Positions 5,234-63,281 of a stretch of 64,000 bases of DNA are shown piece by piece (position 1 is the stretch's first letter; each line of letters starts with the position of its first letter). The position numbers were made by a program, and so were the translations under genes. The stretch comes from Bacteroidota bacterium (GTDB taxonomy: Bacteria; Bacteroidota; Bacteroidia; Flavobacteriales; Flavobacteriaceae), in assembly GCA_024279425.1 (NCBI GenBank), contig JAJRRO010000133.1:20759-84758 (forward strand). Reading direction: 5' to 3'. The notes under the pieces were generated by a model. It saw only the letters and a program-made list of their open reading frames with translations. It was not told the DNA's origin and did not search any database.

Positions 5234-6772
5234 TTAAACCTGATGGGTAGGTTTCAACAAATCGTTGACGGTCTTAACCGGATTAAAGGTCGCAAGTGGC
5301 ACTTCAACAAAAATAGAATTCCAAAATGCCATGGCACCATTCCAAAGCCCAGGCAATTCCAATGCTTTCAACTCCCGGCCTTCTTTGGTCTTACTTGATA
5401 TAAAACCCTGTTTGTGGTCCACAAAATTCAAAAGATTGTACTTTTCTCCATTAAAGTTCTTTACTCCACATACCAAATCAACCGGATTGAAATGGGTCGA
5501 ATTTTTGAGAATATCAACTTGCTTTTCATTGGACATGTCTATTTGAGCCGATTCAATAATCTGTAAAACAATATGATTATGTGCATTCTTTATCCAAAAT
5601 GGCCCGCCGCCAGGTTCGCCCTCATTTTTGACCATTCCACAAATTCGGATAGGCCTATTAATTTTATCTTTCAATATCTCAATCTGCTCACCAATGCTAA
5701 AACCGGAATACTTATCAATAAAGCGGACATTAAGTTCATTTTCCAAAAAGGATTTGATTTCTGTCATCAACTGAGCCGACAAATTATTTTCGTCCAATAA
5801 TTTGGCATATTCAAAGGCCTTCTCCTGTACATTTAAAAGTAATCCCGCCAACATTTTTTTACTGTTTGCCAATTCCTCCTGAGCGTCTGGTACTACAACA
5901 TTATCTATGTTCTTTATAAAAATAATATCGGCCTCTTCTTCGTTAAGATTTTCTATCAGTGCCCCATGGCCTCCTGGTCTAAAAAGTAAAGACCCATCAG
6001 AATTACGAAATAAATTATTCTCCAAATCAACGGCGACTGTATCGGTGGAAGATTTTTGATAGGAGTATCCTATGTTAAATGAGGTTTCGGTCTCTTTTGA
6101 CAAGCGCGGGTTCACTTCCTTATATTGGGCGCTGAACATCTTCATATGTTGTTCGGAAATAGTAAAGTGCAGGTTAGCCTCATCACCCATTTTAGCATAA
6201 TTTGCCGCTTCCCTTAGATGTTCTTCAAAGGGAGTCGCACTATGGTCTCCATAATTGTGGAAGGGCAAAAGGCCTTTAGGATAAAATCCGTAATTCAACC
6301 CTCCTTCCAACATCATTTCCTTTACAAAAAGATAGATTTCTTCGTCCTTGTTGGCCGCCTTTCCTTTTATTCTTTCCTGAACTACATCATAAAAGGAAAA
6401 ATTCGTAAGGCCTTGACTAAAAAGGCGTATATCGGAATCATCGGTCCGATCAATGTAGTCTTCCAAACTTTCCTTACTTGGGTCGTAAACATCCAAAAAA
6501 TTGAACAACGTCTTGAACATTCTAGAGGCAGCACCAGAAGCCGGAACAAATTTAAGAATGGACAACTTGTCCATGGATCCCTCAAAGGTATTGATTAAGG
6601 CTTTTTGTTCCTTAGCTGTAAATTTGCTTATTCCATTACCTATCACAGCGGCATTTTCCAAATCGACAAAGGGTATTCCCTCTTTAAAAATTTCTACCTG
6701 ATTCCTTACTTTTTCTTTGGTTATACCCTTTTCGGCTAATAACTCTTGGTCTTTTTCGGTCAGTTGCATCAT
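5234..6772 (-). CDS. DUF4301-like protein with a UDP-sugar pyrophosphorylase (UDPGP)-like nucleotidyltransferase fold
   Basis: 512-aa ORF. Three motifs resemble UDPGP-family pyrophosphorylases: KFVPASGAASRMF (the G-x-G-T/S-R-L/M nucleotide-binding loop), RPGGHGALI (P-x-GHG) and IKNIDNVVV (N-x-DN-L/V). Its start ATGATG overlaps the TGA stop of the upstream kinase gene (ATGA overlap). Confidence 0.55.
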   Translation of the reverse strand: MMQLTEKDQELLAEKGITKEKVRNQVEIFKEGIPFVDLENAAVIGNGISKFTAKEQKALINTFEGSMDKLSILKFVPASGAASRMFKTLFNFLDVYDPSKESLEDYIDRTDDSDIRLFSQGLTNFSFYDVVQERIKGKAANKDEEIYLFVKEMMLEGGLNYGFYPKGLLPFHNYGDHSATPFEEHLREAANYAKMGDEANLHFTISEQHMKMFSAQYKEVNPRLSKETETSFNIGYSYQKSSTDTVAVDLENNLFRNSDGSLLFRPGGHGALIENLNEEEADIIFIKNIDNVVVPDAQEELANSKKMLAGLLLNVQEKAFEYAKLLDENNLSAQLMTEIKSFLENELNVRFIDKYSGFSIGEQIEILKDKINRPIRICGMVKNEGEPGGGPFWIKNAHNHIVLQIIESAQIDMSNEKQVDILKNSTHFNPVDLVCGVKNFNGEKYNLLNFVDHKQGFISSKTKEGRELKALELPGLWNGAMAFWNSIFVEVPLATFNPVKTVNDLLKPTHQV

Positions 6773-7332
6773 TTGTTCAATAAGTTATCAATGTGTTCTA
6801 CAGCAGTTTTAAGGCGTGTTTTTTTATCCCCTTTTAAGATAACAAAATTCCTATTATGTTTCTCCAAGGTTTCCTTGAAATATAAAAACATACGTTCCCG
6901 CTCATTGGGTTTGTCTCGTAAATCATCCGCCTGCCACGGAATATCTATATATGTAAGAAAATAAAGGTCATACGAATTCGCTAAAGCATATTTCTCCAAA
7001 CTTGAATCGCAATATCCTAAATAATAAGCCTCGGAATACACCTTGGTCTCCAACAGATCAGTATCGCATACCAGCAAGTCAGAGGCTTTTTTGGCCAAAT
7101 CATTTTCCAAGCGCATTTGCCCTTCGGCAATGGGCAATAAATCCTGAGGTTCACAGGTCTTTCTTTCATTGTTCCATTTATCCTGTAGATACGCTCTGGC
7201 ATATTCCGGCACCCATACTGTATTATAATGCCTGGCAAGCTGTTCGGACAAGGTGGTTTTCCCAGTAGACTCAGGGCCAAATAACACTACTTTAACGACA
7301 TCTGAGGGTTGTTGTCTAAATTTTTCTTCCAT
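6769..7332 (-). CDS. NadR-type P-loop kinase (ribosylnicotinamide kinase-like ATPase, AAA_28)
   Basis: 187 aa. Walker A motif VLFGPESTGKTT close to the N-terminus, as in the RNK domain of NadR. Overlaps both neighbouring genes, which implies translational coupling. Confidence 0.7.
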   Translation of the reverse strand: MEEKFRQQPSDVVKVVLFGPESTGKTTLSEQLARHYNTVWVPEYARAYLQDKWNNERKTCEPQDLLPIAEGQMRLENDLAKKASDLLVCDTDLLETKVYSEAYYLGYCDSSLEKYALANSYDLYFLTYIDIPWQADDLRDKPNERERMFLYFKETLEKHNRNFVILKGDKKTRLKTAVEHIDNLLNK

Positions 7333-8210: not shown

Positions 8211-8852
8211 TCAACTGTCACCCAAACGAAGAGCATATACGCAGGTAAAACCCTCAAATTCCAAAAATTGGATATCATATCGCGATATATCGCCTTTATA
8301 AATAACCTGCCCTCTAATTTTGCTGTCTGAAAAATCAAAGTCTTCAATGTTGATATGCTGCATAAAGCTAAGCCCTTCGATTGCATAGATTTTATAAAGT
8401 GATTCCTTACAACCCCAAACTATAGTGAATTTACGTACCAGGTCTTTTGTGCTTTTAATATGGCTATAAGCTTCAATCTGTGTGAATTTATGAGCGATTC
8501 GCGTGATTTTTGGACGTTGCATTTCAATATCAATGCCTACCTCAATAGTATCACTCACAATAATTCCGGTAAATTGATGGGAGTGTGTTATGCTAATATG
8601 TCTGCCATCAATCAAATGTGGCTTACCCACCTTGTCATAGAAAAGATCCTTATCTTCATAATCGGCTTTGGCCATTAAATGCCGTATACTCAAAAAACCC
8701 CTACGGTGCATTTCAGATTTCATACCGTCAATTCGGTCTTGACAATGCGGGGTTAAATGAATCCCCTGTGAAAGCTCGTCCTCGGATTCTTCAATCTTCC
8801 AAATATAAACCGTAACTGTCTGGTTTACCTGTATTGTTTTATAAAGAGGCAT
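8211..8852 (-). CDS. 4'-phosphopantetheinyl transferase (Sfp/AcpS superfamily)
   Basis: The [11 protein letters not shown] motif matches the (W/F)-x-x-KE-S-x-x-K PPTase signature. Start taken at MPLYKTIQV (ATG 8852) rather than the longer track ORF. Confidence 0.75.
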
Positions 8853-8872
8853 GGTGTTATTTAGGATATTCG

Positions 8873-8880
8873 TAACTTTG
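8873..8880 (+). promoter_or_regulatory. Bacteroidetes sigma-A -7 box (TAnnTTTG) upstream of ahcY
   Basis: TAACTTTG sits 58 nt upstream of the ahcY ATG. No Shine-Dalgarno sequence, consistent with Bacteroidota. Confidence 0.35.
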
Positions 8881-8937
8881 CGACTCTTTAAAAAGAACTG
8901 CAATAATCAAACAACGAAAGTAAAAATAAAAAAGGAT

Positions 8938-29093: not shown

Positions 29094-29999
29094 CTATTGC
29101 GACACTATATTCTGTTTTTTTATGAAGCCATTTGTTTTTAAAATGGCTTGTTCATTTTTCCAATCTATCCATTTTTGCCCTTTTACCTTACGCATGATTC
29201 CATCATAATTTCTCATAATCAATATATTATAGAAGGCCGAGAACAAATTCTTTGGGTTTCTGGCGATAGCTCGCAAACTCATTGAAAATCCTGGGGTTAC
29301 ATATTTCATATGATGCCAATAGCCCTCAGGAATATATAAAACCTCCCCATGGTTCAAAAGGGTTTTATAGCCAGAAGCATTTTTTAAGGCGGGCCATTTT
29401 TCAAAATCAGGATTTGTGAAATCTATGCTTTCATGGGTAATCAATGAGTGAGGTACTTTATATAAATACTTGCTCTCTGTCTGTGGAAACAATATGCATT
29501 CTTTTTTACCCTCAAAATGAAAATGGAAAATATTGGCGAGGTCTATATCAAAATGCATGAAAGTATGGGAATTCTCTCCTCCAAAAAAGAGCATCGGCAA
29601 TTTTTTCATCAATCTTAAACCAAAGTCCGGGTAATTAAAGTCCCGCTGCAGTTCAGGAATTTCCCTTAAAACGTTCCAAAGAAATATTCTGTACTTGGTT
29701 GGTTCACTTTGAAGTAAGTCTATATAATCAGACATCTTCATTTTTGCATGTGGTTCATTAAAACCATCTTCATGATGAACCGGGCGGTCGTCATACAGTG
29801 GCACTATCTTATCACCCGCAATTTTCCTCATATAGTCCAAATTCCATTTGGAATATGCCGGCCAGTCATCTATATACCGTTCAATTACAACTGGTTTTTG
29901 CGGCTCAAAATATTTAGTGATAAAAGCCTCTTTGGTAATGGTTCTTACTCTTGGTATTTCGTTTAAGTTCAAGCTTAATCTGGTTGAATTACGTATCAA
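29094..29999 (-). CDS. Cupin-like/JmjC-domain protein (Cupin_8)
   Basis: HFD...LYIPEGYWHHM metal-binding pattern of JmjC/cupin hydroxylases. Located 51 nt downstream of bioB on the same strand. Confidence 0.6.
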   Translation of the reverse strand: MIRNSTRLSLNLNEIPRVRTITKEAFITKYFEPQKPVVIERYIDDWPAYSKWNLDYMRKIAGDKIVPLYDDRPVHHEDGFNEPHAKMKMSDYIDLLQSEPTKYRIFLWNVLREIPELQRDFNYPDFGLRLMKKLPMLFFGGENSHTFMHFDIDLANIFHFHFEGKKECILFPQTESKYLYKVPHSLITHESIDFTNPDFEKWPALKNASGYKTLLNHGEVLYIPEGYWHHMKYVTPGFSMSLRAIARNPKNLFSAFYNILIMRNYDGIMRKVKGQKWIDWKNEQAILKTNGFIKKQNIVSQ

Positions 30000-30050: not shown

Positions 30051-31145
30051 CTACCCGTTCAATTTAGCTTTTTGTTTAGCAAGTTCATTCCGCTCAATAG
30101 TATGTCCAGGTCTTGTCCATTTGGGCTTTTCACTTAATGACTCAAATTTTGAATCTTCTGCCTCAACAGTCTTTGGTTGAGCCGATTTTGTGAATGGCTT
30201 TTGCGGATTTAATCCCAATACTTCGAACATTGCCATATCCTCATTTACATCGGGATTAGGCGTGGTCAATAATTTATCCCCGGCAAAAATGGAATTGGCA
30301 CCTGCAAAGAAACAAAGCGCTTGACCTTCCCTACTCATTTCCGTTCGGCCTGCTGATAGTCTTACTTGGGTTTCGGGCATAACAATGCGGGTGGCAGCTA
30401 CCATACGAATCATTTCCCAAATCTCAATAGGCTCAATATCCTCCATGGGTGTGCCTTCAACGGCAACCAGCGCGTTTATAGGGGTAGATTCCGGTTGTGG
30501 GTTCAAGGATGAAAGTGCCACCAACATACCTGCTCTATCTTCCAACTTTTCACCCATACCTATAATACCGCCACTACAAACCGTAATGTTGCTCTGACGC
30601 ACATGGTTTATGGTTTCCAGTCGGTCTTCAAATGCCCGTGTTGAAATAACATCTTTATAATAATCTTCTGAAGTATCCAAATTATGATTGTAGGCATAAA
30701 GTCCGGCTTCAGAAAGACGTTTTGCCTGATTTTCAGTTACCATACCCAAAGTACAGCAAACTTCCATATCCAATTTATTTATAGTACGTACCATCTCAAG
30801 TACTTGGTCAAATTCGGGACCATCCTTTACATTACGCCAAGCTGCTCCCATACATACACGAGAACTACCCGATTCTTTGGCACGAAGTGCCTGGGCCTTA
30901 ACATGTGGCACAGACATCAGATCATTACCTTCTATACCTGTACTATATCTTGCCGCTTGGGGACAATACCCACAATCTTCGGAGCAACCGCCGGTTTTAA
31001 TTGATACTAATGTGGACACCTGCACCGTGTTCGGATCATGGTTTTTGCGATGGACTGTTGCGGCCTCATAAAGCAATTCCATCAAAGGTTTGTTATAAAT
31101 ATCAAGAATTTCCTCTTTGGTCCAGTTGTGTCTTGTAGTACTCAT
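30051..31145 (-). CDS. bioB: Biotin synthase with a C-terminal extension of about 45 aa
   Basis: Radical-SAM CSEDCGYCPQ and a conserved BioB core. A charged extension follows about 320 aa in. Confidence 0.95.
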   Translation of the reverse strand: MSTTRHNWTKEEILDIYNKPLMELLYEAATVHRKNHDPNTVQVSTLVSIKTGGCSEDCGYCPQAARYSTGIEGNDLMSVPHVKAQALRAKESGSSRVCMGAAWRNVKDGPEFDQVLEMVRTINKLDMEVCCTLGMVTENQAKRLSEAGLYAYNHNLDTSEDYYKDVISTRAFEDRLETINHVRQSNITVCSGGIIGMGEKLEDRAGMLVALSSLNPQPESTPINALVAVEGTPMEDIEPIEIWEMIRMVAATRIVMPETQVRLSAGRTEMSREGQALCFFAGANSIFAGDKLLTTPNPDVNEDMAMFEVLGLNPQKPFTKSAQPKTVEAEDSKFESLSEKPKWTRPGHTIERNELAKQKAKLNG

Positions 31146-31280
31146 AGGCTTTACTTAAAATAGGTTTCAAAATTAACCTATAATACTTAAAAAATGTAAT
31201 AATCATAACCCTAATTGCTACAAAAAGCCTGCAATCAAAATTAAATCACAGGCCCTTATTGCTAATTTTATACTAGGTTT

Positions 31281-32720
31281 TTATTCCTCTTCCCCTTCAT
31301 TTTTGAGTTTCTGTTTTTTGTCTTCAAATGAGGCTTCGTTTTCATCTTCTATCTTTTTACCTTTGAGATATTCTGGTAATTGCATACCTGCCATATTGAA
31401 CATTTCCTGTAATGGGGGTACCGATTTATACATTCCTGAAATAAAGTTGGCTGTAGAATTCTTTCCATCTGCAGATGTACTGCCAGAATCCCATACAGTA
31501 ACTTTATCTATTTTGATATTCTTAATTGCTTCTGCTTGCGTTTTCACCAATTCAGGTAGTTTGTCTGCTATCAGTAATAAAACGGCATCTTTTGGATCAT
31601 CGCCTGCTGCCTTTACAATTTTGTCCAAACCTTCAGCCTGCTTAGTCAATATTTCATAAATACCTTTTGCCTCGGCCTCTGCCTTGGCAAAGATTGCATC
31701 TGCCTCACCTCTAGCCTTACGCCGAATCATTTCGGCCTCGGCCTCTGCATCAATCTCAACTTTTTTCTTATCAATTTCAGCGGGCACAACAATATCTGCC
31801 ATTTGTGAACTACGTTCTCTTTCAGCCCTTGCAATTTCAGCATTTTTCTCGGCAGCATAGGATTCTTCCAGTGCTCTAGCTGATTGTACTTTTTCAGAGG
31901 CAATAGCTGTACGTTCCGCTTCTGCTTCCCGTTGTCTTCTTAAGGAATCAGAATTTGCCACATCGATTTTTGCCAAGTTTTCACCTTCAACGGCTTTCGC
32001 ATTTGCAGCTGCAACTTGGGTTCGTTGATCCTGAACCGCATTAGCCTCACCGATAGACCCATCTCTATTCTTTTCGGCAACTGATTTACGCGCAGCGTTG
32101 ATTGCGTGAGCCGCTGCTTCTTTACCCAAAGCCTCAATATATCCCGATTCATCAACAATGTCCGTAATGTTTACGTTAATGAGTTTAAGACCCACTTTCT
32201 TAAGCTCTGACTCAACACTTTTGGAAATATTAGTCAAAAATTTATCCCTATCAGAATTAATTTCTTCTATATCCATAGATGCAACAACTAAACGTAATTG
32301 TCCGAAGATAATTTCCTGAGCCAGTTCTTGGATTTCATTTTGACCGAGACCCAAAAGGCGTTCCGCTGCATTTTGCATGATTCCAGGCTCTGTAGAAACT
32401 CCGATTGTAAACCGCGAAGGTACATTTACACGAATATTCTGTTTACTTAGGGCATTGACCAAATTGACTTCGATTGAAATAGGAGTCAAATCTAAAAACT
32501 GATAATCTTGGATTACGGGCCATATAAATGCCGCACCACCATGTATACAATTAGCAGAACTTCCACCTCCAACTTTACCATACACAACCAAAATACGGTC
32601 AGACGGACAACGTTTATACCTTCGGATAAAGGATATGATAACGATGAAAAAGAAAAGAATTGCAAAGCCAATTGCCAGTAATGAGGCACTCCCGCCAAAT
32701 TGTAATGGTAGTAGAAACAT
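31281..32720 (-). CDS. Flotillin-like SPFH/band-7 protein (YqiK/FloT-like)
   Basis: N-terminal TM, SPFH domain, long Ala/Glu-rich coiled coil (EAEAERTA...). Confidence 0.8.
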   Translation of the reverse strand: MFLLPLQFGGSASLLAIGFAILFFFIVIISFIRRYKRCPSDRILVVYGKVGGGSSANCIHGGAAFIWPVIQDYQFLDLTPISIEVNLVNALSKQNIRVNVPSRFTIGVSTEPGIMQNAAERLLGLGQNEIQELAQEIIFGQLRLVVASMDIEEINSDRDKFLTNISKSVESELKKVGLKLINVNITDIVDESGYIEALGKEAAAHAINAARKSVAEKNRDGSIGEANAVQDQRTQVAAANAKAVEGENLAKIDVANSDSLRRQREAEAERTAIASEKVQSARALEESYAAEKNAEIARAERERSSQMADIVVPAEIDKKKVEIDAEAEAEMIRRKARGEADAIFAKAEAEAKGIYEILTKQAEGLDKIVKAAGDDPKDAVLLLIADKLPELVKTQAEAIKNIKIDKVTVWDSGSTSADGKNSTANFISGMYKSVPPLQEMFNMAGMQLPEYLKGKKIEDENEASFEDKKQKLKNEGEEE

Positions 32721-32724
32721 TTAG

Positions 32725-33303
32725 TTAGTTATTTAATAGTTCAACAATCAATATTCCGTTATCGGCAACTTCCTTGACTTTAACCACATCACCTTGACGC
32801 AAGTCCCTTTCTTCCTCAGTCAATGCATCTAATTCACGTAAAGTCCCTTGTACATTTATACTTACTTTCCCAATCTTTGACCTATTGGCACCAATAGTCA
32901 AATACACTTCGCCAATTTGGTTGAGTGCATTTTTTAATTTCAACGTACCATTACTTTGTAACTTACTTAAGTAATAAAACAATGTTGCCATAGCAAGCAT
33001 CATTAGCAAACCACAAATCACTGAGATTGCAATGGTAGGTCCTTTTGACAATCCACTATCTAGGCAAGATATTCCTGTCCATCCGAAAATGGTGAAAAAG
33101 CCCATTAAATTTTTAAAGGATAAAAATTGGAAACCAACACCCGAATCTCCATCAATATCGGTGTCGATATCACCGCTCATGTCTTCAACATCACCACCAA
33201 TAAAAGTCATAATGATCAGAATCAGCAAAATAATCGAAGAAATAATAGCCGTTATCCAATAGATTTTCTCAAACGAATTCAAAGCTTCAAACCATTGTTC
33301 CAT
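32725..33303 (-). CDS. NfeD-like membrane protein, partner of flotillin
   Basis: TM helices and a C-terminal OB-fold-like region. Ends 5 nt before the flotillin gene, the canonical NfeD-flotillin operon. Confidence 0.7.
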   Translation of the reverse strand: MEQWFEALNSFEKIYWITAIISSIILLILIIMTFIGGDVEDMSGDIDTDIDGDSGVGFQFLSFKNLMGFFTIFGWTGISCLDSGLSKGPTIAISVICGLLMMLAMATLFYYLSKLQSNGTLKLKNALNQIGEVYLTIGANRSKIGKVSINVQGTLRELDALTEEERDLRQGDVVKVKEVADNGILIVELLNN

Positions 33304-33364: not shown

Positions 33365-34519
33365 TTAATTAGAAAGTAGCACTGATACCGCATTACCTCC
33401 AAAACCGACTGCATTTACCAATATTTTTTGGATTTTTGGGGGAACTGATGTGTAATCATCGAAGGGCGTTCCTATAAATTTTTGGTGCTGCAACATCAAT
33501 AGCGCCAATTCAACACTTAACATCCCGGAAGCACCAAAGGTATGTCCGACTTTCCATTTATTTGTTGTACAAAATGGTAGTTTGTTACAAAAAACCTTGT
33601 CCAATGCATTTTTTTCTGATAAATCACCTTTGACCGTTCCTGGGGCATGCATTACGATTACATCCACATCATCTGGATCCGTATTGCCCAAAGCCATATT
33701 CATAGAACGTTGAAAACAAACGGCATCTGTTGAAATGGAAGTATTATGTACCAAGGGTTCGGTGGCATAGCCTATACCTTCAATGACCGCCAATGTATTC
33801 TTCTTGATTCCCAATTCTAAACAGGCCATTGAGGCTCCTTCGCCTAAAATCATGGTATTGCTCACTTTTTTTAAATCCATTGCTCCACATGGGTAACTAG
33901 AATTTCCTTTAGCATAAATACGCATGGCTTTCATTTGGGCAATGGTAAAAGGTGTCAAGGGTGCTTCGCTCCCACCAACCAAAAACTTGTTCGCCATACC
34001 ACTTTTAAGCCATGCCACACCATTTAAAAAGGCATGCAAGGCTGTGGAACAAGTAATGGAGTGTGAAATTTCAGGTCCTTGTGTGCCAAGGTCATGCGCC
34101 ACCCAAGATGAAATATTACCCAAAGTGGTGGTTGGGGATGATAATGTGGATACTTTTCCTCCATTCAAAAATTCTCCGTGATATTTTTCAAAAAGTGAGG
34201 TCGCCCCTCTAGAAGAACCTATATTGATTCCAAAACCATCGGCCGCCTGCCAACCTGCTTTTTCAATGGCCAATCTTGATGCGAATAATGCATATAAAAC
34301 CGAATCATCAAGGTTCCCATAATTTGCATCGGACCTTTTGAGTGCTTCTATCTCTGCTGCGACCTTTTCCGACAATGGAGCAATCCAATCGGTACTACCA
34401 CCAATCTTTTTCTGAATAAAGCAATGGTCAATATCCAAATAGCTGTTCCATGCCTCTTCCAATGTTGTTCCCAACGGAGAAATCGATGCAATGGCGGTTA
34501 TGGAAATTGGTCTATTCAA
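33365..34519 (-). CDS. FabB/FabF-like beta-ketoacyl-ACP synthase (KAS I/II family) embedded in the biotin cluster
   Basis: Active-site Cys in ITCSTALHAF and His motifs HAPGTVKGD and KVGHTFGASG. At 384 aa it is shorter than FabF. It sits 17 nt downstream of bioA. Confidence 0.8.
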   Translation of the reverse strand: MNRPISITAIASISPLGTTLEEAWNSYLDIDHCFIQKKIGGSTDWIAPLSEKVAAEIEALKRSDANYGNLDDSVLYALFASRLAIEKAGWQAADGFGINIGSSRGATSLFEKYHGEFLNGGKVSTLSSPTTTLGNISSWVAHDLGTQGPEISHSITCSTALHAFLNGVAWLKSGMANKFLVGGSEAPLTPFTIAQMKAMRIYAKGNSSYPCGAMDLKKVSNTMILGEGASMACLELGIKKNTLAVIEGIGYATEPLVHNTSISTDAVCFQRSMNMALGNTDPDDVDVIVMHAPGTVKGDLSEKNALDKVFCNKLPFCTTNKWKVGHTFGASGMLSVELALLMLQHQKFIGTPFDDYTSVPPKIQKILVNAVGFGGNAVSVLLSN

Positions 34520-34535
34520 AGGTTCTATTTAAAAG

Positions 34536-35807
34536 TCAGACTATGGAAAGTACATCTTTGATGGCCGCATAAATCGTATTCATTTGCCTGTCTGTAATGA
34601 CATAAGGTGCCAGAATATAAATAGTATTGCCCAAAGGACGCAAAAATACCCCGTTATCCATAAAATGATGGAATAGTTTATCACGGAGATTCCCATATCT
34701 TTCCATTTTCAGGTTCAAATCCACGGCAAAGATAACTCCACATTGACGAATACCTACAACCTTGGGATGTTGTTCTATCTCCTTTCCAAACTTTTTATGC
34801 GATGCTATTATCCGCCTAATATTATTTTGGATCTCATTGGACTTTAACAGCTCAATCCCAGCCAAAGCAGCTGTACATGCCAGCGGATTTGCGGTATATG
34901 TATGTCCATGAAACAAACCTTTGGTTAAATCTTTACTATAAAAAGCATCATAGACCTTTTGGGTACAACTTGTAATCGCCATTGGCATCAAACCAGCTGT
35001 AAGGGCCTTGGACAAGCAGATTACATCCGGTTTGGCTTCAATCTGATCAGAGGCAAAATAAGTTCCGGTTTTACCAAAACCAGTCATTACCTCATCTGCT
35101 ATCGTTAGTATCTCATGCCGTTGCAGCAAATTCAGTATTCTGTTTAGCCCTTCAGCCCCATACATTTTCATAGCTGCCGCACCTTGAACCAGTGGTTCGT
35201 AAATGAAACCAGCAATGGTATTTTCCTTTAATCTATTTTCCAATAGGGAAAGGGTGTTTTCCACATTTTCCTTGGTCGGCACAGGAATTCGCTCAACTTC
35301 AATAAAGAAATCCTCGAAAGGACCATTATAAACCGAAAGACCTGATACTGACATTGCACCAAAAGTATCACCGTGAAATCCATCTTCAAAAGCCAACAGG
35401 ACCTTACGTTTATTTCCTTGGTTAAAATGGTACTGTAATGCCATTTTGATTCCTATCTCTGTCGAAGTAGACCCATTGTCCGAAAAAAATAGTTTTTCTT
35501 GATTCTTTGGGAGTATTTTAATAAGTTCTTCAGACAATTTAACCACTGGTTCATGGGTAAATCCACTGAAAACAACTTGATCCAATCGCTGCATCTGTGC
35601 ATAGACCCTTTCAAGAATAAAATCATTGCAGTGGCCATACATACAGGTATACCAAGAAGAAATACCATCTATGTATTGTTTGCCTTCCTCATCAAAAAGT
35701 AAAGATCCCTTCGCTGAGGAAATCCCTAACATATCAGGATGCAGTTTGTGCTGTGTCAAAGGATGCCACAGATGTTTTTTATCCCGTTCGGAAAGATTTT
35801 TTGCCAT
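34536..35807 (-). CDS. bioA: Adenosylmethionine-8-amino-7-oxononanoate aminotransferase
   Basis: Class-III aminotransferase with a conserved BioA N-terminus (LWHPLTQHK) and a PLP lysine region. Confidence 0.9.
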   Translation of the reverse strand: MAKNLSERDKKHLWHPLTQHKLHPDMLGISSAKGSLLFDEEGKQYIDGISSWYTCMYGHCNDFILERVYAQMQRLDQVVFSGFTHEPVVKLSEELIKILPKNQEKLFFSDNGSTSTEIGIKMALQYHFNQGNKRKVLLAFEDGFHGDTFGAMSVSGLSVYNGPFEDFFIEVERIPVPTKENVENTLSLLENRLKENTIAGFIYEPLVQGAAAMKMYGAEGLNRILNLLQRHEILTIADEVMTGFGKTGTYFASDQIEAKPDVICLSKALTAGLMPMAITSCTQKVYDAFYSKDLTKGLFHGHTYTANPLACTAALAGIELLKSNEIQNNIRRIIASHKKFGKEIEQHPKVVGIRQCGVIFAVDLNLKMERYGNLRDKLFHHFMDNGVFLRPLGNTIYILAPYVITDRQMNTIYAAIKDVLSIV

Positions 35808-35840
35808 CGATGAATTTGATAGATAAGCTTTTTATCTATC

Positions 35841-37361
35841 TTGCAAAGATGGGAATTAATCCTAAGAAAACCGATGCTGAAAAGTCTTATAAATTTGGTT
35901 GCACAGAACTATTCGAATCTTAAAAATAAGACCGTTTTTCTTTTTATTTTTTGTGTTTCCTTCTTTTTGCGCTTACCCTTTTTCTTTCGTGATTATATTG
36001 ATCGAGACGAAAGCACATTTATACTCATGGGGCAATCGTGGGTCGATGGAAATCTGCCCTATACCGAACTTTGGGATTTAAAACCCCCTATCACCTTTTT
36101 ATTTTTTGCAGGGATTATTTATGTATTTGGAAAGAGTTTTATTGCTATTCGCCTGTTTGGCACTTTATTGGTCGCCCTAACAGCTTTTTTTACATATAAA
36201 ATCGGTGAGGAGACCAACTCTAAAAAAACGGGCTTTTGGTCAGCGATCATTTGTGTTGTTTTATTGACTCTTTTCGGAAGTTTACAAGGAGTAATGTCAG
36301 AGCATATTTGCATGGCCTTTTTCATGCCGGGATTATATCTACTTATTAGGTCTAATAAACCGCATTGGCATTTAGTTTCGGGATTACTCATGGGGACCGC
36401 CGTGATGGCCAAAATGAACATTGCCTATGCTATTTTATTCCTTGGGATTTTCATTATATATCGCAATGTGCCAAATAAAAAATGGTTTTTAGGCATAATT
36501 AATTTTGTGTTTTTTGGGCTTGGGGTTTTGTTGGTCATTCTATGTACCTTTTTGCCTTATTATTTAAATGGCAATCCTGAAGTATGGTGGAAATCAGTGG
36601 TTCTGGCCCCTCTGGAATATGTTGGGGCAAGAAGGGAGTCTCTTTTGAATTTGGCTCCTGTTTTTGCATTCTTGGCAGTGTTTTTCTTCTTTGTTTGGAA
36701 AAAGAATTTAGTGGATTTTAAGAAAACCTCAGCCCAGTTCTTGCTCGTAGCAATTTTGGGAGTTTTGTACGCCTTTTATAAAGGCGGAAGAATCAATGGG
36801 CATTATCTTATTCAGTTACATCCAATAATGGTAATATTGGTTGTCATAGTTTTGGGTAAGATTCATTTTTTCAGGCAGCTTACATGGAAGCCGTATTACC
36901 TGGTTTTTCTTTTTCTAATTCCAATGGAATCGTATTTAGAATATGCCAATGTTATTAAAAATAGGATTGAACGGGGTACCTTTTTTAATGGAGAAGGCAT
37001 TTCAGCACCAAAGTATATTCAGGAAAATAATCTAGACACACATAACATCCTCTTCCTTGGATATCATATTGGCTATTGGGCTTTGGATGCCACCCCTCCC
37101 ACCAAAGCGGCAACTCATCCGAGTAATATTTGTCGCGAAGAATTGTTCCCTTTCTACGAAAATCCAAGGAAAAGTTCTATTGAAGAACTACGGTATATTA
37201 TGGAAACCATACAGCCAAAAACCATAATAACGAGAAAGAACAGGTTGGTTTTTGACAAGAAACAGACGAAAGAAAACGAGTATATCGACGCCTATTTGAT
37301 TAAACATTATAAAGTTCATGCCATAATCGAAAAAGCCAATATCCTACAACGTTTAAAGTGA
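35841..37361 (+). CDS. GT39/ArnT-like glycosyltransferase (PMT_2 family, 4-amino-arabinose or mannosyltransferase-like)
   Basis: About 11 TM helices. N-terminal loop DRDESTFILMGQSW matches the GT-C DE motif. Antisense to the bio genes; its 3' end overlaps the bioD stop by 9 nt. Confidence 0.65.
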   Translation: MQRWELILRKPMLKSLINLVAQNYSNLKNKTVFLFIFCVSFFLRLPFFFRDYIDRDESTFILMGQSWVDGNLPYTELWDLKPPITFLFFAGIIYVFGKSFIAIRLFGTLLVALTAFFTYKIGEETNSKKTGFWSAIICVVLLTLFGSLQGVMSEHICMAFFMPGLYLLIRSNKPHWHLVSGLLMGTAVMAKMNIAYAILFLGIFIIYRNVPNKKWFLGIINFVFFGLGVLLVILCTFLPYYLNGNPEVWWKSVVLAPLEYVGARRESLLNLAPVFAFLAVFFFFVWKKNLVDFKKTSAQFLLVAILGVLYAFYKGGRINGHYLIQLHPIMVILVVIVLGKIHFFRQLTWKPYYLVFLFLIPMESYLEYANVIKNRIERGTFFNGEGISAPKYIQENNLDTHNILFLGYHIGYWALDATPPTKAATHPSNICREELFPFYENPRKSSIEELRYIMETIQPKTIITRKNRLVFDKKQTKENEYIDAYLIKHYKVHAIIEKANILQRLK

Positions 37362-37970
37362 TTCCAAGGCCGGTCTAAATAAATCGGCATATTTTCTGAT
37401 CATCTCCTGGTCAAATGTTTTTTCCTCATTTATCCTTCCAATACATTTTACCCTTGTCTTTTTAAGTATGATGCTTTCGGTCGTTGGGTGCACATTTCCA
37501 CTAAATAAAATAGAGACATCATATCCTTTAAGTTGCAACCAATTTATGGTCAATAGCGAATGGTTTATACTCCCTAAATAATGTCGGGAAACAACAATTA
37601 CCTTATAATTAGGCAAGATCAAATCCAAAATCGTATCGGTATCGTTCAGAGGCACTAGAAGTCCGCCTGCTCCTTCAATAATCAAATGATTGCTGGTTTC
37701 TGGTTCAAAAATCGTATTCACATCAATGGTAAGATCGTCGATTTCGGCAGCGGCATGAGGACTCATTGGGGAATTGAGCTCATAAGTGCATGGGTGGATT
37801 TTTGACTTATTATTAGAAATCAAACGCGCAACTTTGTGGCTATCTGTATTGTTCAATTCACCCGCTTGTACAGGTTTCCAATAATCGGCTGCGAGCGCTT
37901 CCATAATTATTGCCGATGCGATGGTCTTACCCACTTCGGTGGATATTCCTGTAACAAAGATTCGTTTCAT
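37353..37970 (-). CDS. bioD: ATP-dependent dethiobiotin synthetase
   Basis: P-loop GISTEVGKT plus a conserved BioD core. Confidence 0.9.
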   Translation of the reverse strand: MKRIFVTGISTEVGKTIASAIIMEALAADYWKPVQAGELNNTDSHKVARLISNNKSKIHPCTYELNSPMSPHAAAEIDDLTIDVNTIFEPETSNHLIIEGAGGLLVPLNDTDTILDLILPNYKVIVVSRHYLGSINHSLLTINWLQLKGYDVSILFSGNVHPTTESIILKKTRVKCIGRINEEKTFDQEMIRKYADLFRPALESL

Positions 37971-38004
37971 CTGCTTAATACGTTGGTTATGGTGTTATTT
38001 GGTC

Positions 38005-38397
38005 TTAATTGGGTCTAGAAATCATTCCACAATTAAGGCATTTGTACTTTCGCTTTTCAAAAAAAGGAAATAGTTTGAGAAATATGCCTTTGCGCGCATA
38101 ATAGCCTTCAGATTTTTTGGATTTGCAATTTGGGCAAACAATCGGGTTTCCGTTATCATCAACAGCATAGGTCCGTATCTCGTTGTAAATTTCCAAAGCC
38201 CTTTCCTTATGCTTGCTATATACCCTTAACTTGACCCCTCCGATGGCATAACTTATCAATGGGTCTGAATTCAGGGTATTTTCATCTTTAAGAAACACCG
38301 GGATTCCTTCCGATTCCAATTTTCCTCTGATTATTTGCACATCAGTAGGAAATTCGAATGAACCAATTGTATAAAATACATCTTCCATAGGCTTCAA
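38005..38397 (-). CDS. DUF2007 (putative signal-transducing, PII-like fold) domain fused to a C-terminal C4 zinc ribbon
   Basis: The DUF2007 pattern is present (GIPVFLKDEN...GGVKLRVYSKHKERALEIY). CPNC-x22-CLNC forms the zinc ribbon. Overlaps the bioF stop by 4 nt and lies 34 nt upstream of bioD. Confidence 0.6.
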   Translation of the reverse strand: MKPMEDVFYTIGSFEFPTDVQIIRGKLESEGIPVFLKDENTLNSDPLISYAIGGVKLRVYSKHKERALEIYNEIRTYAVDDNGNPIVCPNCKSKKSEGYYARKGIFLKLFPFFEKRKYKCLNCGMISRPN

Positions 38398-39545
38398 ACA
38401 TTTGAATGTAAAATTCCCAGCACTTCCTTGATTTCATCTGGGGTGTTGTACTCATGAAGACAAAATCGCAATCGTTCTTCATTTCTTGATACGGTTGGTG
38501 ATAAAATGGCCTTTACATGAAACCCTTTTTCATGAAACACTTGGGCAACTTTCTTTACATTCCCATTCCCAGGGATCTTGCAGCACTGTATTGCCGAATT
38601 ACTCGGAATAAATCTGGTGTCTAAATTCAATATACTTATTTGCTCCTTAAAAAACTTTATGTTTCCCGAAAGTCTTTGCTGGCTATCGGGTACCGACCCC
38701 AAATGCCTATAAACTTGTATTATGGTCGCAATTGAATGTGGAGGTAAGGCTGTTGTATAAATAAAGCTCCTAGCAAAATTGATTAAATAATTTCTCAAGC
38801 TTTCACTTCCCAGGATGGCCGCTCCATGACAGCCCATAGCCTTACCAAAGGTTACGATTCTCGCAAATATATGATCTTGCAACCCTAGTTTCTGAACAAG
38901 ACCTTTGCCCTTTTCTCCAACAACGCCAACGGCATGGGCTTCATCAATTACTAAATGAAAATCATTCACCCTGCAGTATTTGACCAATGTATTTAAATCC
39001 GGGGAATCACCATCCATTGAAAAAATAGATTCCGTGACCACATAGATTTCCCCATGAGTGGGATTCCTAGTTCCAAGAGCATTACATTTTTGGGCCAAAT
39101 CCTCCAAATCATTGTGCCTGAACTTATAGCTTTTGGCATTTCCCATGATGATGCCATCCCGAATACTTGCGTGTATGTATTCATCATAAAAAACCACATC
39201 GCCCCGTTGGGGAACTGAACCAAAAAAACCGATATTGGCATCGTAGCCAGAATTAAATACCAATGCCGAAGTAACTTCATGAAATTCTTTTAGCACATTC
39301 TCGAGCTGGCCATAAAGTGAATGATTCCCCGACAACAATCTGGATCCTGTCGCACCATTCTGATCAAAGCCTCCATTTTTAAGCAACTCCGAAGTGCTAT
39401 CGAATATTTTTTGGTTTTTTGACAGCCCCAAATAATCGTTAGATGAAAAGTCTACCAAAGTATTGGGAATCGGCAAATCTCTTAACGCATTTTCCTTGTC
39501 CCTATCGATAAGTTTCAATCGTAATTTCTTTGGGAAGCGCGCCAT
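38394..39545 (-). CDS. bioF: 8-amino-7-oxononanoate synthase
   Basis: Alpha-oxoamine synthase family. PLP-lysine motif TFGKAMG. Confidence 0.85.
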   Translation of the reverse strand: MARFPKKLRLKLIDRDKENALRDLPIPNTLVDFSSNDYLGLSKNQKIFDSTSELLKNGGFDQNGATGSRLLSGNHSLYGQLENVLKEFHEVTSALVFNSGYDANIGFFGSVPQRGDVVFYDEYIHASIRDGIIMGNAKSYKFRHNDLEDLAQKCNALGTRNPTHGEIYVVTESIFSMDGDSPDLNTLVKYCRVNDFHLVIDEAHAVGVVGEKGKGLVQKLGLQDHIFARIVTFGKAMGCHGAAILGSESLRNYLINFARSFIYTTALPPHSIATIIQVYRHLGSVPDSQQRLSGNIKFFKEQISILNLDTRFIPSNSAIQCCKIPGNGNVKKVAQVFHEKGFHVKAILSPTVSRNEERLRFCLHEYNTPDEIKEVLGILHSNV

Positions 39546-39708
39546 AAAACAAAAGTACTATTTACTCATTTAAATGCTATATTCGTGACAATAAACCTTT
39601 TTAAAATGAGAACCTTATTCATTCTTATTGCTTTACTATTATTCACCTTTATACCTGGACAACCATAAAGAAAGCAATAGAGAATGGAACCTAATTGTCC
39701 TGAAATAG

Positions 39709-49596: not shown

Positions 49597-50442
49597 ATGG
49601 TGCTGATCAAATACAAAAAGGAACTAACCGAACATCTTTCCTTTACCGAAAAAAAGAAAAGTATTGGCTTGGTGCCTACTATGGGAGCTTTACATAGTGG
49701 TCATACAGCTCTAGTGCAAAGGGCCGCTCATGAGAATGAAGTTGTTGTGGTCAGTATTTTTGTCAACCCTACACAGTTCAATAACAAGAAGGACTTGGAG
49801 AAATATCCTCAGACACTAAAAAACGATATGGACCTTCTTGAAAAGATATCGAAAGACATATTGGTTTTTGCCCCAACCGTCAAAGAAATGTATTCCAATA
49901 AGGTGAAATCCGAAAATTATAATTTTGACGGACTTGAAAATGTAATGGAAGGGGCCTTCAGGGAGGGCCATTTTGATGGTGTCGGAACAATCGTTGAAAT
50001 ACTTTTGAATTCAGTAAAACCTGATAAAGCATATTTCGGTGAAAAAGACTTTCAACAATTGCAGATTATCAGAAAATTGGTTGAAATGCGAAACATTCCC
50101 GTGAAAATTATTGGTTGCCCTATTGTAAGGGAATCCAATGGATTGGCACTAAGCTCCAGAAATGAAAGGTTGTCTCATACTGTTAGAAATGAAGCCGCAT
50201 TTATCTTTAAGACACTAACGTCTGCCCAAAGAATATTTGGCACGGAAAGTGCAAAGAATGTTAAGGACTGGGTAACAAAACAATTTAAAAAACACCCAGA
50301 TTTTGAACTGGAGTATATTGAAATCACCGAAGCAGCTACATTAAAACCCATTATTAGAAAACAAAAAAACAGAAAGTACAGGGCATTTATCTCTGCTTAT
50401 GCTGATGGTGTGCGATTAATAGATAACATCGCCCTTAATTAA
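49597..50442 (+). CDS. panC: Pantoate--beta-alanine ligase
   Basis: PTMGALHSGH (the HxGH motif). Confidence 0.9.
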   Translation: MVLIKYKKELTEHLSFTEKKKSIGLVPTMGALHSGHTALVQRAAHENEVVVVSIFVNPTQFNNKKDLEKYPQTLKNDMDLLEKISKDILVFAPTVKEMYSNKVKSENYNFDGLENVMEGAFREGHFDGVGTIVEILLNSVKPDKAYFGEKDFQQLQIIRKLVEMRNIPVKIIGCPIVRESNGLALSSRNERLSHTVRNEAAFIFKTLTSAQRIFGTESAKNVKDWVTKQFKKHPDFELEYIEITEAATLKPIIRKQKNRKYRAFISAYADGVRLIDNIALN

Positions 50443-50455
50443 TTAACTTTGTCAC

Positions 50456-50806
50456 ATGCAAATAGAAGTCGTAAAATCTAAAATTCACCGTGTAAAAGTC
50501 ACTGGTGCGGATCTTAATTATATTGGTAGCATTACCATAGACGAGGATTTAATGGATGCCGCCAACATAATTCAAGGTGAAAAGGTCCAGATTGTGAACA
50601 ATAACAACGGTGAGCGATTAGAAACCTATGCTATTCCCGGTCCAAGAGGTAGTGGGGAAATTACACTAAACGGAGCCGCTTCTCGAAGAGTGGCAGTCGG
50701 CGATGTTTTGATTTTAATTACCTATGCCAGAATGGATATTGAAGAAGCGAAAAAGTTCAATCCTTCATTGGTGTTTCCTAATGAAGAGACCAATCTCATG
50801 AATTGA
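50456..50806 (+). CDS. panD: Aspartate 1-decarboxylase
   Basis: [29 protein letters not shown] carries the pyruvoyl-forming G-S site. Confidence 0.95.
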
Positions 50807-51799: not shown

Positions 51800-52942
51800 A
51801 TGCAACGTTTTTTAATCGTGTTGGCATTGTTCGTTTGTTTTGGACTTAATGCCCAAGTCACCAAAGAAATCTTCGAATCTTTTAAACTTCAAGAAAGAAG
51901 GGACGTAAGCTATTATTTTCCCGAAAACTATAGTAAAGAAAAAAAGCATCCGCTAATTGTGGTTTTAGATGGTGACTATCTGTTCGAACAAGTAGTTGCG
52001 ACCGCCAAATTCTATAGTAAATTTCATGGTATGCCAGAGTCTATCATCGTTGGCATTCATCAAAGTGAAGGCAGTATTCGATTAGATGATTGTGCATTTG
52101 ACAAGGAAACTGGATTACCATTGGAAAAAGGAAGCAAGTTCTTTGAATTTTTGGGAATGGAAATCATTCCTTATCTAGACCTTAACTACAATACAGCACC
52201 ATTTAAAATGGTTGTTGGATATGATATAACAGCTAATTTTCAAAACTACTGGTTGTTCAAGGAACGCTCACTCTTCAATGCATACATAAACATATCGCCG
52301 ACCTTGGCTCCTGAAATGGAAACAAGAATACCGACTAGGTTAAAAGCAATGAACAAGCAGATTTTCTACCAATTGATTCAAGAGGGTGAGAAAAGTAGGT
52401 ACACCCCAAGAATCATGGCACTAAACAATGCCATAAAGGCCATTGACAAAGAATCCTTGCATTATTATTTCGACGAGTACCCCAGTGCTGATCATATATC
52501 AATTGTCTCTTATGGTATTGGGAAGGCTTTTGATAATATCTTTGGCATGTTCAAGCCTATTAGTCCCAAGGAGTACAAAACCCAAATATTAACATCGGTT
52601 GACCCTGTCTTTAATTATCTTGAAAATAAATACAAAAATATAGAAGACCTCTTCGGGATTAAAAAACCCGTCGACCTTAATGATGTCATGGCGATTTATG
52701 CGGGGACCCGAAAAAAAGAGGACTTTGAATCTTTAAAGCCCCTTTCAGATCTATGCAAGGTTGAATTTCCGAATACCATGTTGGGCTTCTATTTTGAAGG
52801 TGAATACTATGAACAAATGGGCGAACCCAAAAAAGCACTCCGTACTTTCGAAAAAGCTTTTGGCATGGAAGAAATCGACTTCTTGACCAAAGAAATGGCG
52901 CTAGAAAAAATGGATGCTTTAAAAGCCGATTTCGGATTCTAG
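51800..52942 (+). CDS. Secreted esterase-family alpha/beta hydrolase with a C-terminal TPR-like region
   Basis: Signal peptide. Putative-esterase (enterochelin-esterase-like) pattern HPLIVVLDGDYLF. Confidence 0.55.
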   Translation: MQRFLIVLALFVCFGLNAQVTKEIFESFKLQERRDVSYYFPENYSKEKKHPLIVVLDGDYLFEQVVATAKFYSKFHGMPESIIVGIHQSEGSIRLDDCAFDKETGLPLEKGSKFFEFLGMEIIPYLDLNYNTAPFKMVVGYDITANFQNYWLFKERSLFNAYINISPTLAPEMETRIPTRLKAMNKQIFYQLIQEGEKSRYTPRIMALNNAIKAIDKESLHYYFDEYPSADHISIVSYGIGKAFDNIFGMFKPISPKEYKTQILTSVDPVFNYLENKYKNIEDLFGIKKPVDLNDVMAIYAGTRKKEDFESLKPLSDLCKVEFPNTMLGFYFEGEYYEQMGEPKKALRTFEKAFGMEEIDFLTKEMALEKMDALKADFGF

Positions 52943-62435: not shown

Positions 62436-63281
62436 ATGGGGAAATTAAGAACAAAAGTTTCGTTTCATTTAATAATGATATTGGGATTTATATTTATTTG
62501 TAATTCTGTTAAGTCACAGATATTTACTCCAAATAAGGGGAAATTTATTACTGTAAATGAAGCGAAAATATATTATGAAGAATATGGAGAGGGAAAACCT
62601 GTTATTCTTTTGCATCATTTTATGTCGACTGGAACAGATGGATGGTCGTCTTATATTCCATCACTTGCAAAAAATTACAAAGTTATTGTCCCAGACTTAA
62701 GAGGTCATGGAAAATCGACAGACCCAAAATCCAACAATCCTTGGAAAATAGATAATAGTGCATCTGATTTACTTGTTTTTTTAGATTCTTTGAATATCAC
62801 TAAAGTATCTGCAATCGGTGGAAGTGCTGGTGCTTCTACACTACTTAATGCAGCTACTGTTCAACCAGAACGTTTTGAGGCATTAGTGATAGTTGGAGGT
62901 TCTCCTTTTCGTAGCAAAGAATTCCGTGACTGGATTCTTAGAAGTTGGTCTGACGAGATTTCTACTGGTTTCATTGAACTTCATGGAAATGAAAAAGCTA
63001 ATATTCTTAATCGGCAATTTAGAGAAATTGCAAATCAATATCGAGATCATGAACTCACTCCTAATAGACTTAATAGGATAACAGCACGCACCTTAATTGT
63101 TCATGGAGATAACGACCCTATTATTCCTGTTGACTATGCTTGGGAGGTTTACAAAGCAATTTCTGACTCACATTTGTGGATTGTTCCTAATGGAGGTCAC
63201 TTACCGTATTTATACCCATCAAACAAATCTGATTTCACAAAACGAATTCAGGAGTTTCTTTTAACTCCAAAGAATGATTAA
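62436..63281 (+). CDS. Secreted alpha/beta-fold hydrolase (low-GC gene)
   Basis: Signal peptide, HGxG-like oxyanion region (LLHHF), nucleophile elbow GGSAGAS, C-terminal His. Confidence 0.75.
   Translation: MGKLRTKVSFHLIMILGFIFICNSVKSQIFTPNKGKFITVNEAKIYYEEYGEGKPVILLHHFMSTGTDGWSSYIPSLAKNYKVIVPDLRGHGKSTDPKSNNPWKIDNSASDLLVFLDSLNITKVSAIGGSAGASTLLNAATVQPERFEALVIVGGSPFRSKEFRDWILRSWSDEISTGFIELHGNEKANILNRQFREIANQYRDHELTPNRLNRITARTLIVHGDNDPIIPVDYAWEVYKAISDSHLWIVPNGGHLPYLYPSNKSDFTKRIQEFLLTPKND

Follow-up and report, generated by a model that had tools for sequence, protein, structure and literature searches.

A FabF-class ketosynthase of Flavobacteriaceae biotin gene clusters as the best candidate for the source of the pimeloyl precursor

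Biotin synthesis varies in the origin of the pimelate moiety, a part of the pathway that is still incompletely mapped. Four pimelate routes are recognised, namely BioC-BioH, BioI-BioW, BioZ and, since 2025, BioE, and a FabF-type enzyme is not among them (PMC12704756, PMC12915131; literature to December 2025). Here we analysed a stretch of 64,000 nucleotides (nt) from a Flavobacteriaceae genome (assembly GCA_024279425.1, contig JAJRRO010000133.1, positions 20,759 to 84,758), referred to below as the window, which carries the late-step biotin genes bioF, bioD, bioA and bioB together with a gene for a ketosynthase of 384 amino acids (aa). All four late genes are present in most Flavobacteriia, a group described as major marine biotin producers (PMC9561691), and the pathway is therefore expected to be functional. 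Despite this repute, the Flavobacteriaceae clusters examined show genes of none of the four routes. The locus thus raises the question of which enzyme provides BioF with its pimeloyl thioester. Among candidates for the enzyme behind the pimeloyl precursor of biotin in these bacteria, the ketosynthase is the strongest. We consider it probable, though not strongly so, that it is a biotin-dedicated condensing enzyme of the β-ketoacyl-acyl carrier protein synthase I/II (KAS I/II, or FabF) class that supplies this thioester.

Linkage of the ketosynthase gene to biotin genes

The four late-step genes all lie on one strand of the window (the minus strand), as a preliminary description of this DNA had stated and as the open reading frame (ORF) list and the NCBIfam and Pfam assignments confirmed. 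bioF (38394-39545) encodes a member of the 8-amino-7-oxononanoate synthase family, which consumes the pimeloyl thioester; it carries PF00155 and has TIGR00858 as its best NCBIfam match. The other three are bioD (dethiobiotin synthase, 37353-37970; TIGR00347, 107 bits with the cutoff at 83, and PF13500), bioA (adenosylmethionine-8-amino-7-oxononanoate transaminase, 34536-35807; TIGR00508, 531 bits against 405) and bioB (biotin synthase, 30051-31145; TIGR00433, 396 bits against 225). These three passed their equivalog cutoffs while bioF fell short (319 bits against 426), which could reflect divergence of the lineage or an altered preference for the thioester carrier. The ketosynthase gene (33365-34519, also minus, TTG start; PF00109 and PF02801) follows bioA. 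Direct inspection of the nucleotides gave a gap of 16 nt (34520-34535) between the bioA stop and the ketosynthase start, one fewer than the 17 nt first reported.

A scan of genomes at the species level recovered 80 orthologues of the ketosynthase at 59-87% identity, nearly all labelled Flavobacteriaceae (Maribacter, Arenibacter, Cellulophaga, Psychroserpens, Flavobacterium and others). A metagenome scan with the family alignment added 80 further loci, all of them close relatives (at least 61% identity), and distant members were brought in by exact-protein look-ups. Linkage was counted over 166 loci with an orthologue, 146 of which had enough upstream sequence to be judged. bioA was found on the same strand and at most 1.2 kb upstream of the ketosynthase gene in 133 of these 146 informative loci, with a median gap of about 48 nt, and at least one bio gene was present in 99 of the 101 loci having at least 5 kb on each side. 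In 71 of the 80 genomes bioF was syntenic with bioD and bioA. Since the recX, RNase G and ATP synthase genes are likewise syntenic within Flavobacteriaceae, the linkage of the ketosynthase gene to bioA inside this family could be inherited synteny.

The decisive evidence for the ketosynthase as a biotin gene comes from its relatives at 36-45% identity, whose flanks are wholly different. Seven of eight such relatives lie in or beside bio operons. The gene orders are bioB-bioF-bioD-bioA-KAS (L164/L165 and L169), bioF-bioD-bioA-KAS-bioB (L167 and L168), bioD-bioA-KAS (L162) and bioA-KAS (L166), all with overlapping or abutting frames. At L081 the ketosynthase gene is 2 kb from a divergent bioF-bioD pair, and the frames neither overlap nor abut; for the distant relative at L163, no bio gene was found within 10 kb. 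In the compact distant operons the ketosynthase gene is the sole gene beyond the four late-step genes. Co-occurrence of this KAS clade with bio operons, which had been proposed as a check, is therefore borne out both among close orthologues and at 36-45% identity, and we are highly confident that the ketosynthase is functionally tied to biotin synthesis in some way.

Ketosynthase class and acyl pocket

The window protein matched both halves of the ketosynthase domain above cutoff (PF00109, 74.5 bits; PF02801, 57.2 bits). Its best NCBIfam match was the fabF model TIGR03150, whose cutoff of 494 bits it missed with a score of 126. All 17 NCBIfam ketosynthase models stayed below cutoff for this protein, and likewise for the distant members P0225 and P0263. 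Alignments with FabF crystal structures and with Escherichia coli FabF (EcFabF) placed C157, H291 and H326 on EcFabF C163, H303 and H340, K321 on K335, and F373 on the gating Phe400. The triad, K321 and the Phe of the GFGG motif are conserved without exception in the 140 family members compared. With 384 aa, the protein falls 28 residues short of EcFabF (412 aa), mainly through a deletion that corresponds to EcFabF 365-378; the preliminary description of a shortened FabB/FabF-type ketosynthase with its Cys-His-His triad intact was accurate. The E. coli FabF, FabH, BioC and BioH query sequences used in this work may contain small errors; the triad was separately confirmed on the PDB sequences. 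A phmmer search with E. coli FabH did not match the window ketosynthase.

An AlphaFold2 model, built with a 64-sequence family alignment as input, had a predicted local distance difference test score (pLDDT) of 97 and a predicted template modelling score (pTM) of 0.95. Its best neighbours in the PDB were all FabF structures, with template modelling (TM) scores of 0.88-0.92 at 22-24% identity. An exhaustive search of 1.84 billion representatives placed at least 393 clusters at 50% identity in the ketosynthase family (E ≤ 1e-30). The top 150 of these clusters scored 235-558 bits and were nearly all about 380-400 aa long, while solved FabF structures scored at most 101 bits. Judged by sequence, the ketosynthase belongs to a distinct, unnamed KAS I/II family and is no stray FabF paralogue. 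In public databases members of this family are annotated as '3-oxoacyl-ACP synthase II' or 'beta-ketoacyl synthase N-terminal-like domain-containing protein'.

Family members also differ tellingly from FabF in the residues that line the acyl pocket, which were compared by aligning 140 full-length members to EcFabF. FabF Ile108 is replaced by Arg104 in all 140. Around it, FabF Gly107 corresponds to Ser103 (127/140), Leu111 to Thr107 (132/140), Val134 to Ser128 (139/140), Ile138 to Thr132 (136/140), Ala160 to Ser154 (139/140) and Ala162 to Thr156 (137/140). Gly201 is replaced by Gln195 (139/140) and Phe202 by Met196 (113/140). Arg104 is also retained in the orthologues without adjoining bio genes. 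In EcFabF, Ile108 and Phe202 form a 'back gate' at about C7-C8 of the bound chain, Ile108 being characteristic of FabF, and an I108F mutant loads short chains only (PMC9006962). The invariant Arg in place of this hydrophobic gate, set in a pocket rich in Ser and Thr, suggests a primer that is short and ends in a carboxylate, and such a primer would fit the predicted pocket.

With FabF the ketosynthase thus shares the fold, the Cys-His-His-Lys set and the Phe400 gating loop. It differs in the low identity, the missing residues, the replaced Ile108-Phe202 gate and the Ser/Thr pocket, and its gene is operonic with bioA rather than with fab or acpP genes. Neither the score expected of a FabF equivalog nor the hydrophobic gate and pocket were found. 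The I108F mutant of EcFabF and the human mitochondrial KAS, which has Met at the Ile108 position, offer a partial parallel: in both, a bulkier gate residue restricts or biases the acyl chains accepted (PMC9006962). In those enzymes, however, the gate is hydrophobic and the chains are monocarboxylic, in contrast to the conserved cation, polar pocket and biotin context of the ketosynthase.

Known pimelate routes, proposed reaction and rival explanations

We searched the window and the orthologous loci for genes of the known routes. Of the 57 window ORFs with 70 aa or more, 50 were scanned with Pfam, the other seven being large ORFs of 615-925 aa. None of the 50 scanned ORFs encoded a methyltransferase, DUF452, P450, BioW, FabH-like or ferritin-like protein, in agreement with the earlier statement that the window has no bioC, bioG, bioH, bioW, bioI or bioZ. 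A generic alpha/beta hydrolase is encoded at 62436-63281 and reached 39 bits with the bioH model against a cutoff of 207; the only other match of that general kind in the window was an esterase (51800-52942). The E. coli BioC query had no match in 2.54 Mb around the 166 orthologues. In the same sequence the BioH query gave just a marginal match, to the window alpha/beta hydrolase, and FabH-like matches were confined to two loci. No ferritin-like domain was found in the scanned window ORFs or in the annotated conserved neighbour families, as judged by domain annotation; no query with a BioE sequence was made.

In L075, from a Bacteroidota metagenome-assembled genome, there is a divergent FabH-like gene (6001-7059; 200 bits with the fabH model, cutoff 292) some 1.5 kb upstream of bioA-KAS, and bioF and bioD are not in the sequence examined. 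At Psychroserpens-type loci (L007, L052, L055, L061, L063, L076 and L080) a gene for a 322-aa alpha/beta hydrolase lies directly upstream of bioB on the same strand (13355-14323 in L052). We considered this hydrolase as a possible BioH and rejected it, as it reached 40 bits with the bioH model (cutoff 207) and best matched the proline iminopeptidase family.

In the reaction that we propose, a short acyl primer with a free omega-carboxylate, likeliest glutaryl-coenzyme A (glutaryl-CoA) or glutaryl-acyl carrier protein (glutaryl-ACP), would be loaded on Cys157. The C5 carboxylate of the primer would be gripped by Arg104, aided by Gln195 and the Ser/Thr-rich pocket, where FabF has Ile108 and Phe202. 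His291 and His326 would decarboxylate malonyl-ACP, and condensation would yield 3-oxopimeloyl-ACP, which housekeeping FabG, FabZ and FabI would reduce to pimeloyl-ACP for BioF. Glutaryl is favoured over a malonyl primer by general KAS chemistry, because malonyl on Cys157 would adjoin the decarboxylating His pair and the gate residue is several carbons off the thioester. That the primer is specifically glutaryl is a tentative assignment, to which we give somewhat less than an even chance. Enzymes of the type II fatty acid synthase (FAS II) are known from work on BioZ to process C7 intermediates with a free carboxyl (PMC7645780, PMC8024396). We infer the condensing activity, the identity of the primer and the lack of another pimelate route in these genomes. 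The hypothesis of the preliminary description, a dedicated condensation step toward pimeloyl-ACP, is supported in part: by the co-occurrence in operons, by the lack of any known route gene in the scanned window ORFs and in about 2.5 Mb around the orthologues, and by the Arg104 pocket.

The same description had called the ketosynthase analogous in role but not homologous to BioZ. The analogy can be kept, with a difference in ketosynthase class now added to it; 'not homologous' is loose wording, as KAS III and KAS I/II, though different classes, are distantly related within a single thiolase-fold superfamily. BioZ is a condensing enzyme and, like the ketosynthase, is encoded by the single extra gene of a bioBFDA-type operon with no further pimelate genes in the cluster, as in bioBFDAZ of Agrobacterium (PMC8024396). 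The chemistry proposed here would also be shared, in that an omega-carboxyl C5 primer and malonyl-ACP give 3-oxopimeloyl-ACP and FAS II finishes the chain (PMC7645780, PMC8024396). BioZ, however, is of the KAS III (FabH) class, with a Cys-His-Asn triad and a CoA primer, while the ketosynthase is of the KAS I/II class, with Cys-His-His, the Lys335 equivalent and the GFGG gate. BioZ holds the glutaryl carboxylate by two serines, Ser84 and Ser287 (PMC12625853), a role for which the invariant Arg is the candidate here. The taxa differ as well, alpha-proteobacteria in one case and Flavobacteriaceae and allies in the other. Of the features that define BioZ, then, the ketosynthase has the position in a bio cluster and has neither the FabH-like family nor the Cys-His-Asn triad. 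On the best reading it would be a functional analogue of BioZ from a separate ketosynthase class.

BioE, a ferritin-like diiron oxygenase of Weeksellaceae, and the P450 BioI are each encoded by a single dedicated early-step gene beside bioF, bioD, bioB or bioA in genomes lacking BioC-BioH (PMC12704756), a position comparable to that of the ketosynthase gene. The BioE gene adjoins bioF, often together with bioL. The two enzymes differ from the ketosynthase in that they act by oxidative C7-C8 cleavage of long acyl chains, and no homologues of either were seen in the ketosynthase clusters. Weeksellaceae, the sister family, lack every classical pimelate route and use BioE, encoded in a bioEFD operon that includes no ketosynthase gene (PMC12704756). 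The presence of bioE there and of the ketosynthase here hints at a complementary distribution.

Several points weigh against the role proposed for the ketosynthase. KAS I/II enzymes normally use acyl-ACP primers and not acyl-CoA, and the scheme would need a source of glutaryl-ACP. The placement of Arg104 in the pocket comes from an alignment and a predicted model, and the argument built on this residue would be without direct precedent, since BioZ uses two serines instead. Furthermore, BioC/BioG, BioE or another route may be encoded elsewhere in the genome, beyond the window and the orthologue loci, and BioE homologues have been reported in some Flavobacteriaceae (PMC12915131). Finally, six orthologues (L057, L078, L079, L100, L135 and L163) have no adjoining bio genes within the sequence examined.

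A more radical version of the scheme would have the ketosynthase alone constitute a fifth, methylation-free route. Malonyl-ACP and then glutaryl-ACP would serve as primers that are not decarboxylated, their carboxylate gripped by the Arg104/Gln195 gate, through two rounds of FAS II, with neither BioC/BioH nor glutaryl-CoA derived from lysine. We regard this as unlikely; if true, the use of malonyl-ACP as a free-carboxyl primer would make the route categorically new.

The pimeloyl moiety might instead come from another enzyme, unlinked or unrecognised, such as a BioE homologue or a Cupin_8 oxygenase, with the ketosynthase auxiliary or unrelated and located near bio genes for regulatory or historical reasons. 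The reports of BioE in some Flavobacteriaceae would fit this explanation, as would the fact that BioI and BioE, two of the known routes, work by oxidative cleavage (PMC12704756), but no ferritin-like ORF was detected in the scanned window ORFs or in the annotated families adjacent to the clusters. A Cupin_8/JmjC-like gene does lie 51 nt downstream of bioB (29094-29999, minus; no NCBIfam model matched), and its counterpart follows bioB in 58 of the 62 loci with bioB. It is missing, however, from the distant compact operons, in which the ketosynthase gene is the only extra gene. The Cupin_8 protein is 75-94% identical across Flavobacteriaceae genera, above the identity of the bio genes themselves, which points to a housekeeping gene whose position was inherited. 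The Cupin_8 gene was set aside as a rival oxygenase candidate for these two reasons, its very high conservation and its absence from the distant operons. The linkage of the ketosynthase gene to bioA, moreover, outlasts rearrangements down to 36% identity. We hold an origin of the pimeloyl moiety in such an enzyme to be decidedly unlikely.

A third explanation retains a role in elongation. The ketosynthase could be the dedicated elongating enzyme for the methyl esters of malonyl- and glutaryl-ACP in a route of the BioC-BioH type, with the methyltransferase and esterase encoded elsewhere. Such a route pairs a SAM-dependent malonyl-ACP O-methyltransferase with a pimeloyl-ACP methyl ester esterase, either BioH or one of BioG, BioK, BioJ and BioV. 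Housekeeping ketosynthases elongate the methyl-ester intermediates in E. coli (PMC9006962, PMC12704756), which makes a specialised paralogue conceivable; the alpha/beta hydrolase gene directly upstream of bioB in about seven loci could be cited in its favour, and our searches were confined to the window and the orthologue loci. Neither a BioC-like methyltransferase nor DUF452 was present, however, in the scanned window ORFs or in the 2.54 Mb around the 166 orthologues. The hydrolases reached 39-40 bits with the bioH model (cutoff 207), and proline iminopeptidases were the best match of the one upstream of bioB; the compact five-gene operons contain no methyltransferase or esterase genes. A neutral methyl ester, furthermore, would not call for an invariant Arg and a polar pocket. 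We consider elongation of methyl esters quite improbable as the function of this enzyme.

That the ketosynthase is an ordinary KAS paralogue of fatty acid or secondary metabolism, for instance one limited in chain length for octanoyl-ACP or one acting on an unknown lipid, with its adjacency to bioA due to phylogenetic inertia, is very improbable. In favour of this explanation are the nearest structures and profiles, which are those of FabF, the limit on chain length set by a bulky residue in place of Ile108 in FabF I108F and mitochondrial KAS (PMC9006962), and the six loci with no bio neighbours in the sequence examined. Against it, the adjacency is preserved in three gene orders, with unrelated flanks and overlapping frames; no ACP, reductase or dehydratase partner genes accompany the ketosynthase; and the invariant Arg and Gln specific to the family indicate a ligand that is charged and not merely short.

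A dedicated condensing role for the ketosynthase is thus the reading that we favour, and on this best reading it would provide a second route to the pimelate moiety by a condensing enzyme, one recruited independently. We found no published description of a FabF-type ketosynthase in bio clusters in a search of full-text literature that covered few subscription journals. If the assignment is true, a FabF-class ketosynthase would add a second, independently evolved condensing-enzyme solution to the known ones. It would also correct a widespread generic annotation and improve the prediction of biotin prototrophy from genomes and metagenomes. The enzyme would further show how a KAS I/II pocket has been adapted in nature to a dicarboxylic substrate that is short and charged, which is of interest for engineering the production of dicarboxylic acids.

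Neighbouring genes and promoter elements

Several other ORFs lie within the bio cluster of the window. An ORF of 130 aa lies between bioF and bioD (38005-38397, minus). It shares 4 nt with the stop-codon end of bioF, has a weak DUF2007 match (21.7 bits) and encodes a C-terminal CxxC...CxxC zinc ribbon. Its orthologue lies between bioF and bioD in 59 of the 80 genomes and was found in none of the compact distant operons. An accessory role in the bio cluster, in regulation or metal binding, is possible.

Between bioD and bioA, a gene for a PMT_2-like membrane glycosyltransferase (506 aa, 35841-37361; Pfam) is inserted in antisense on the plus strand. It shares 9 nt with the 3' end of bioD, and only 33 nt separate it from the bioA start. 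The insertion recurs in 15 of the 80 genomes, which are Maribacter-type, and is probably unrelated to the biotin cluster. The same is probably true of a pair of NfeD-like and flotillin (SPFH) genes between the ketosynthase gene and bioB (31281-33303, minus; NCBIfam and Pfam), which is present at this position in 23 of the 80 genomes. A terminator-like hairpin lies 3' of the flotillin gene, before the bioB promoter. The ORFs inserted in the clusters around the orthologues are likewise unrelated to biotin synthesis.

A TAnnTTTG box resembling the -7 promoter consensus of Bacteroidetes was found upstream of bioB (about 31150-31200) and of bioF (about 39550-39570). By its sequence this conserved upstream element looks like a promoter and not an operator. 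No common operator was conserved upstream of bioF, bioB, bioA and the ketosynthase gene in the window and the orthologous loci. A palindrome upstream of the window bioB, TAGGTT-N8-AACCTA, was considered as a shared operator and dropped, as it is not conserved. A scan for sigma-70 promoters showed no enrichment, with 30 matches against 34.6 expected. The bioB-upstream regions of L013-L030 were compared, and in the Arenibacter loci palindromic repeats resembling repetitive extragenic palindromic (REP) elements (CCTGCAAGGTCTTGAAGACCTTGTAGGTC) lie upstream of bioB.

We saw no gene for an acyl carrier protein in the neighbourhood of the window bio cluster. A gene for an Sfp/AcpT-type 4'-phosphopantetheinyl transferase (8211-8903, minus) adjoins an S-adenosylhomocysteine hydrolase gene, and the pantothenate genes panC-panD (49597-50806, plus) are located elsewhere in the window.

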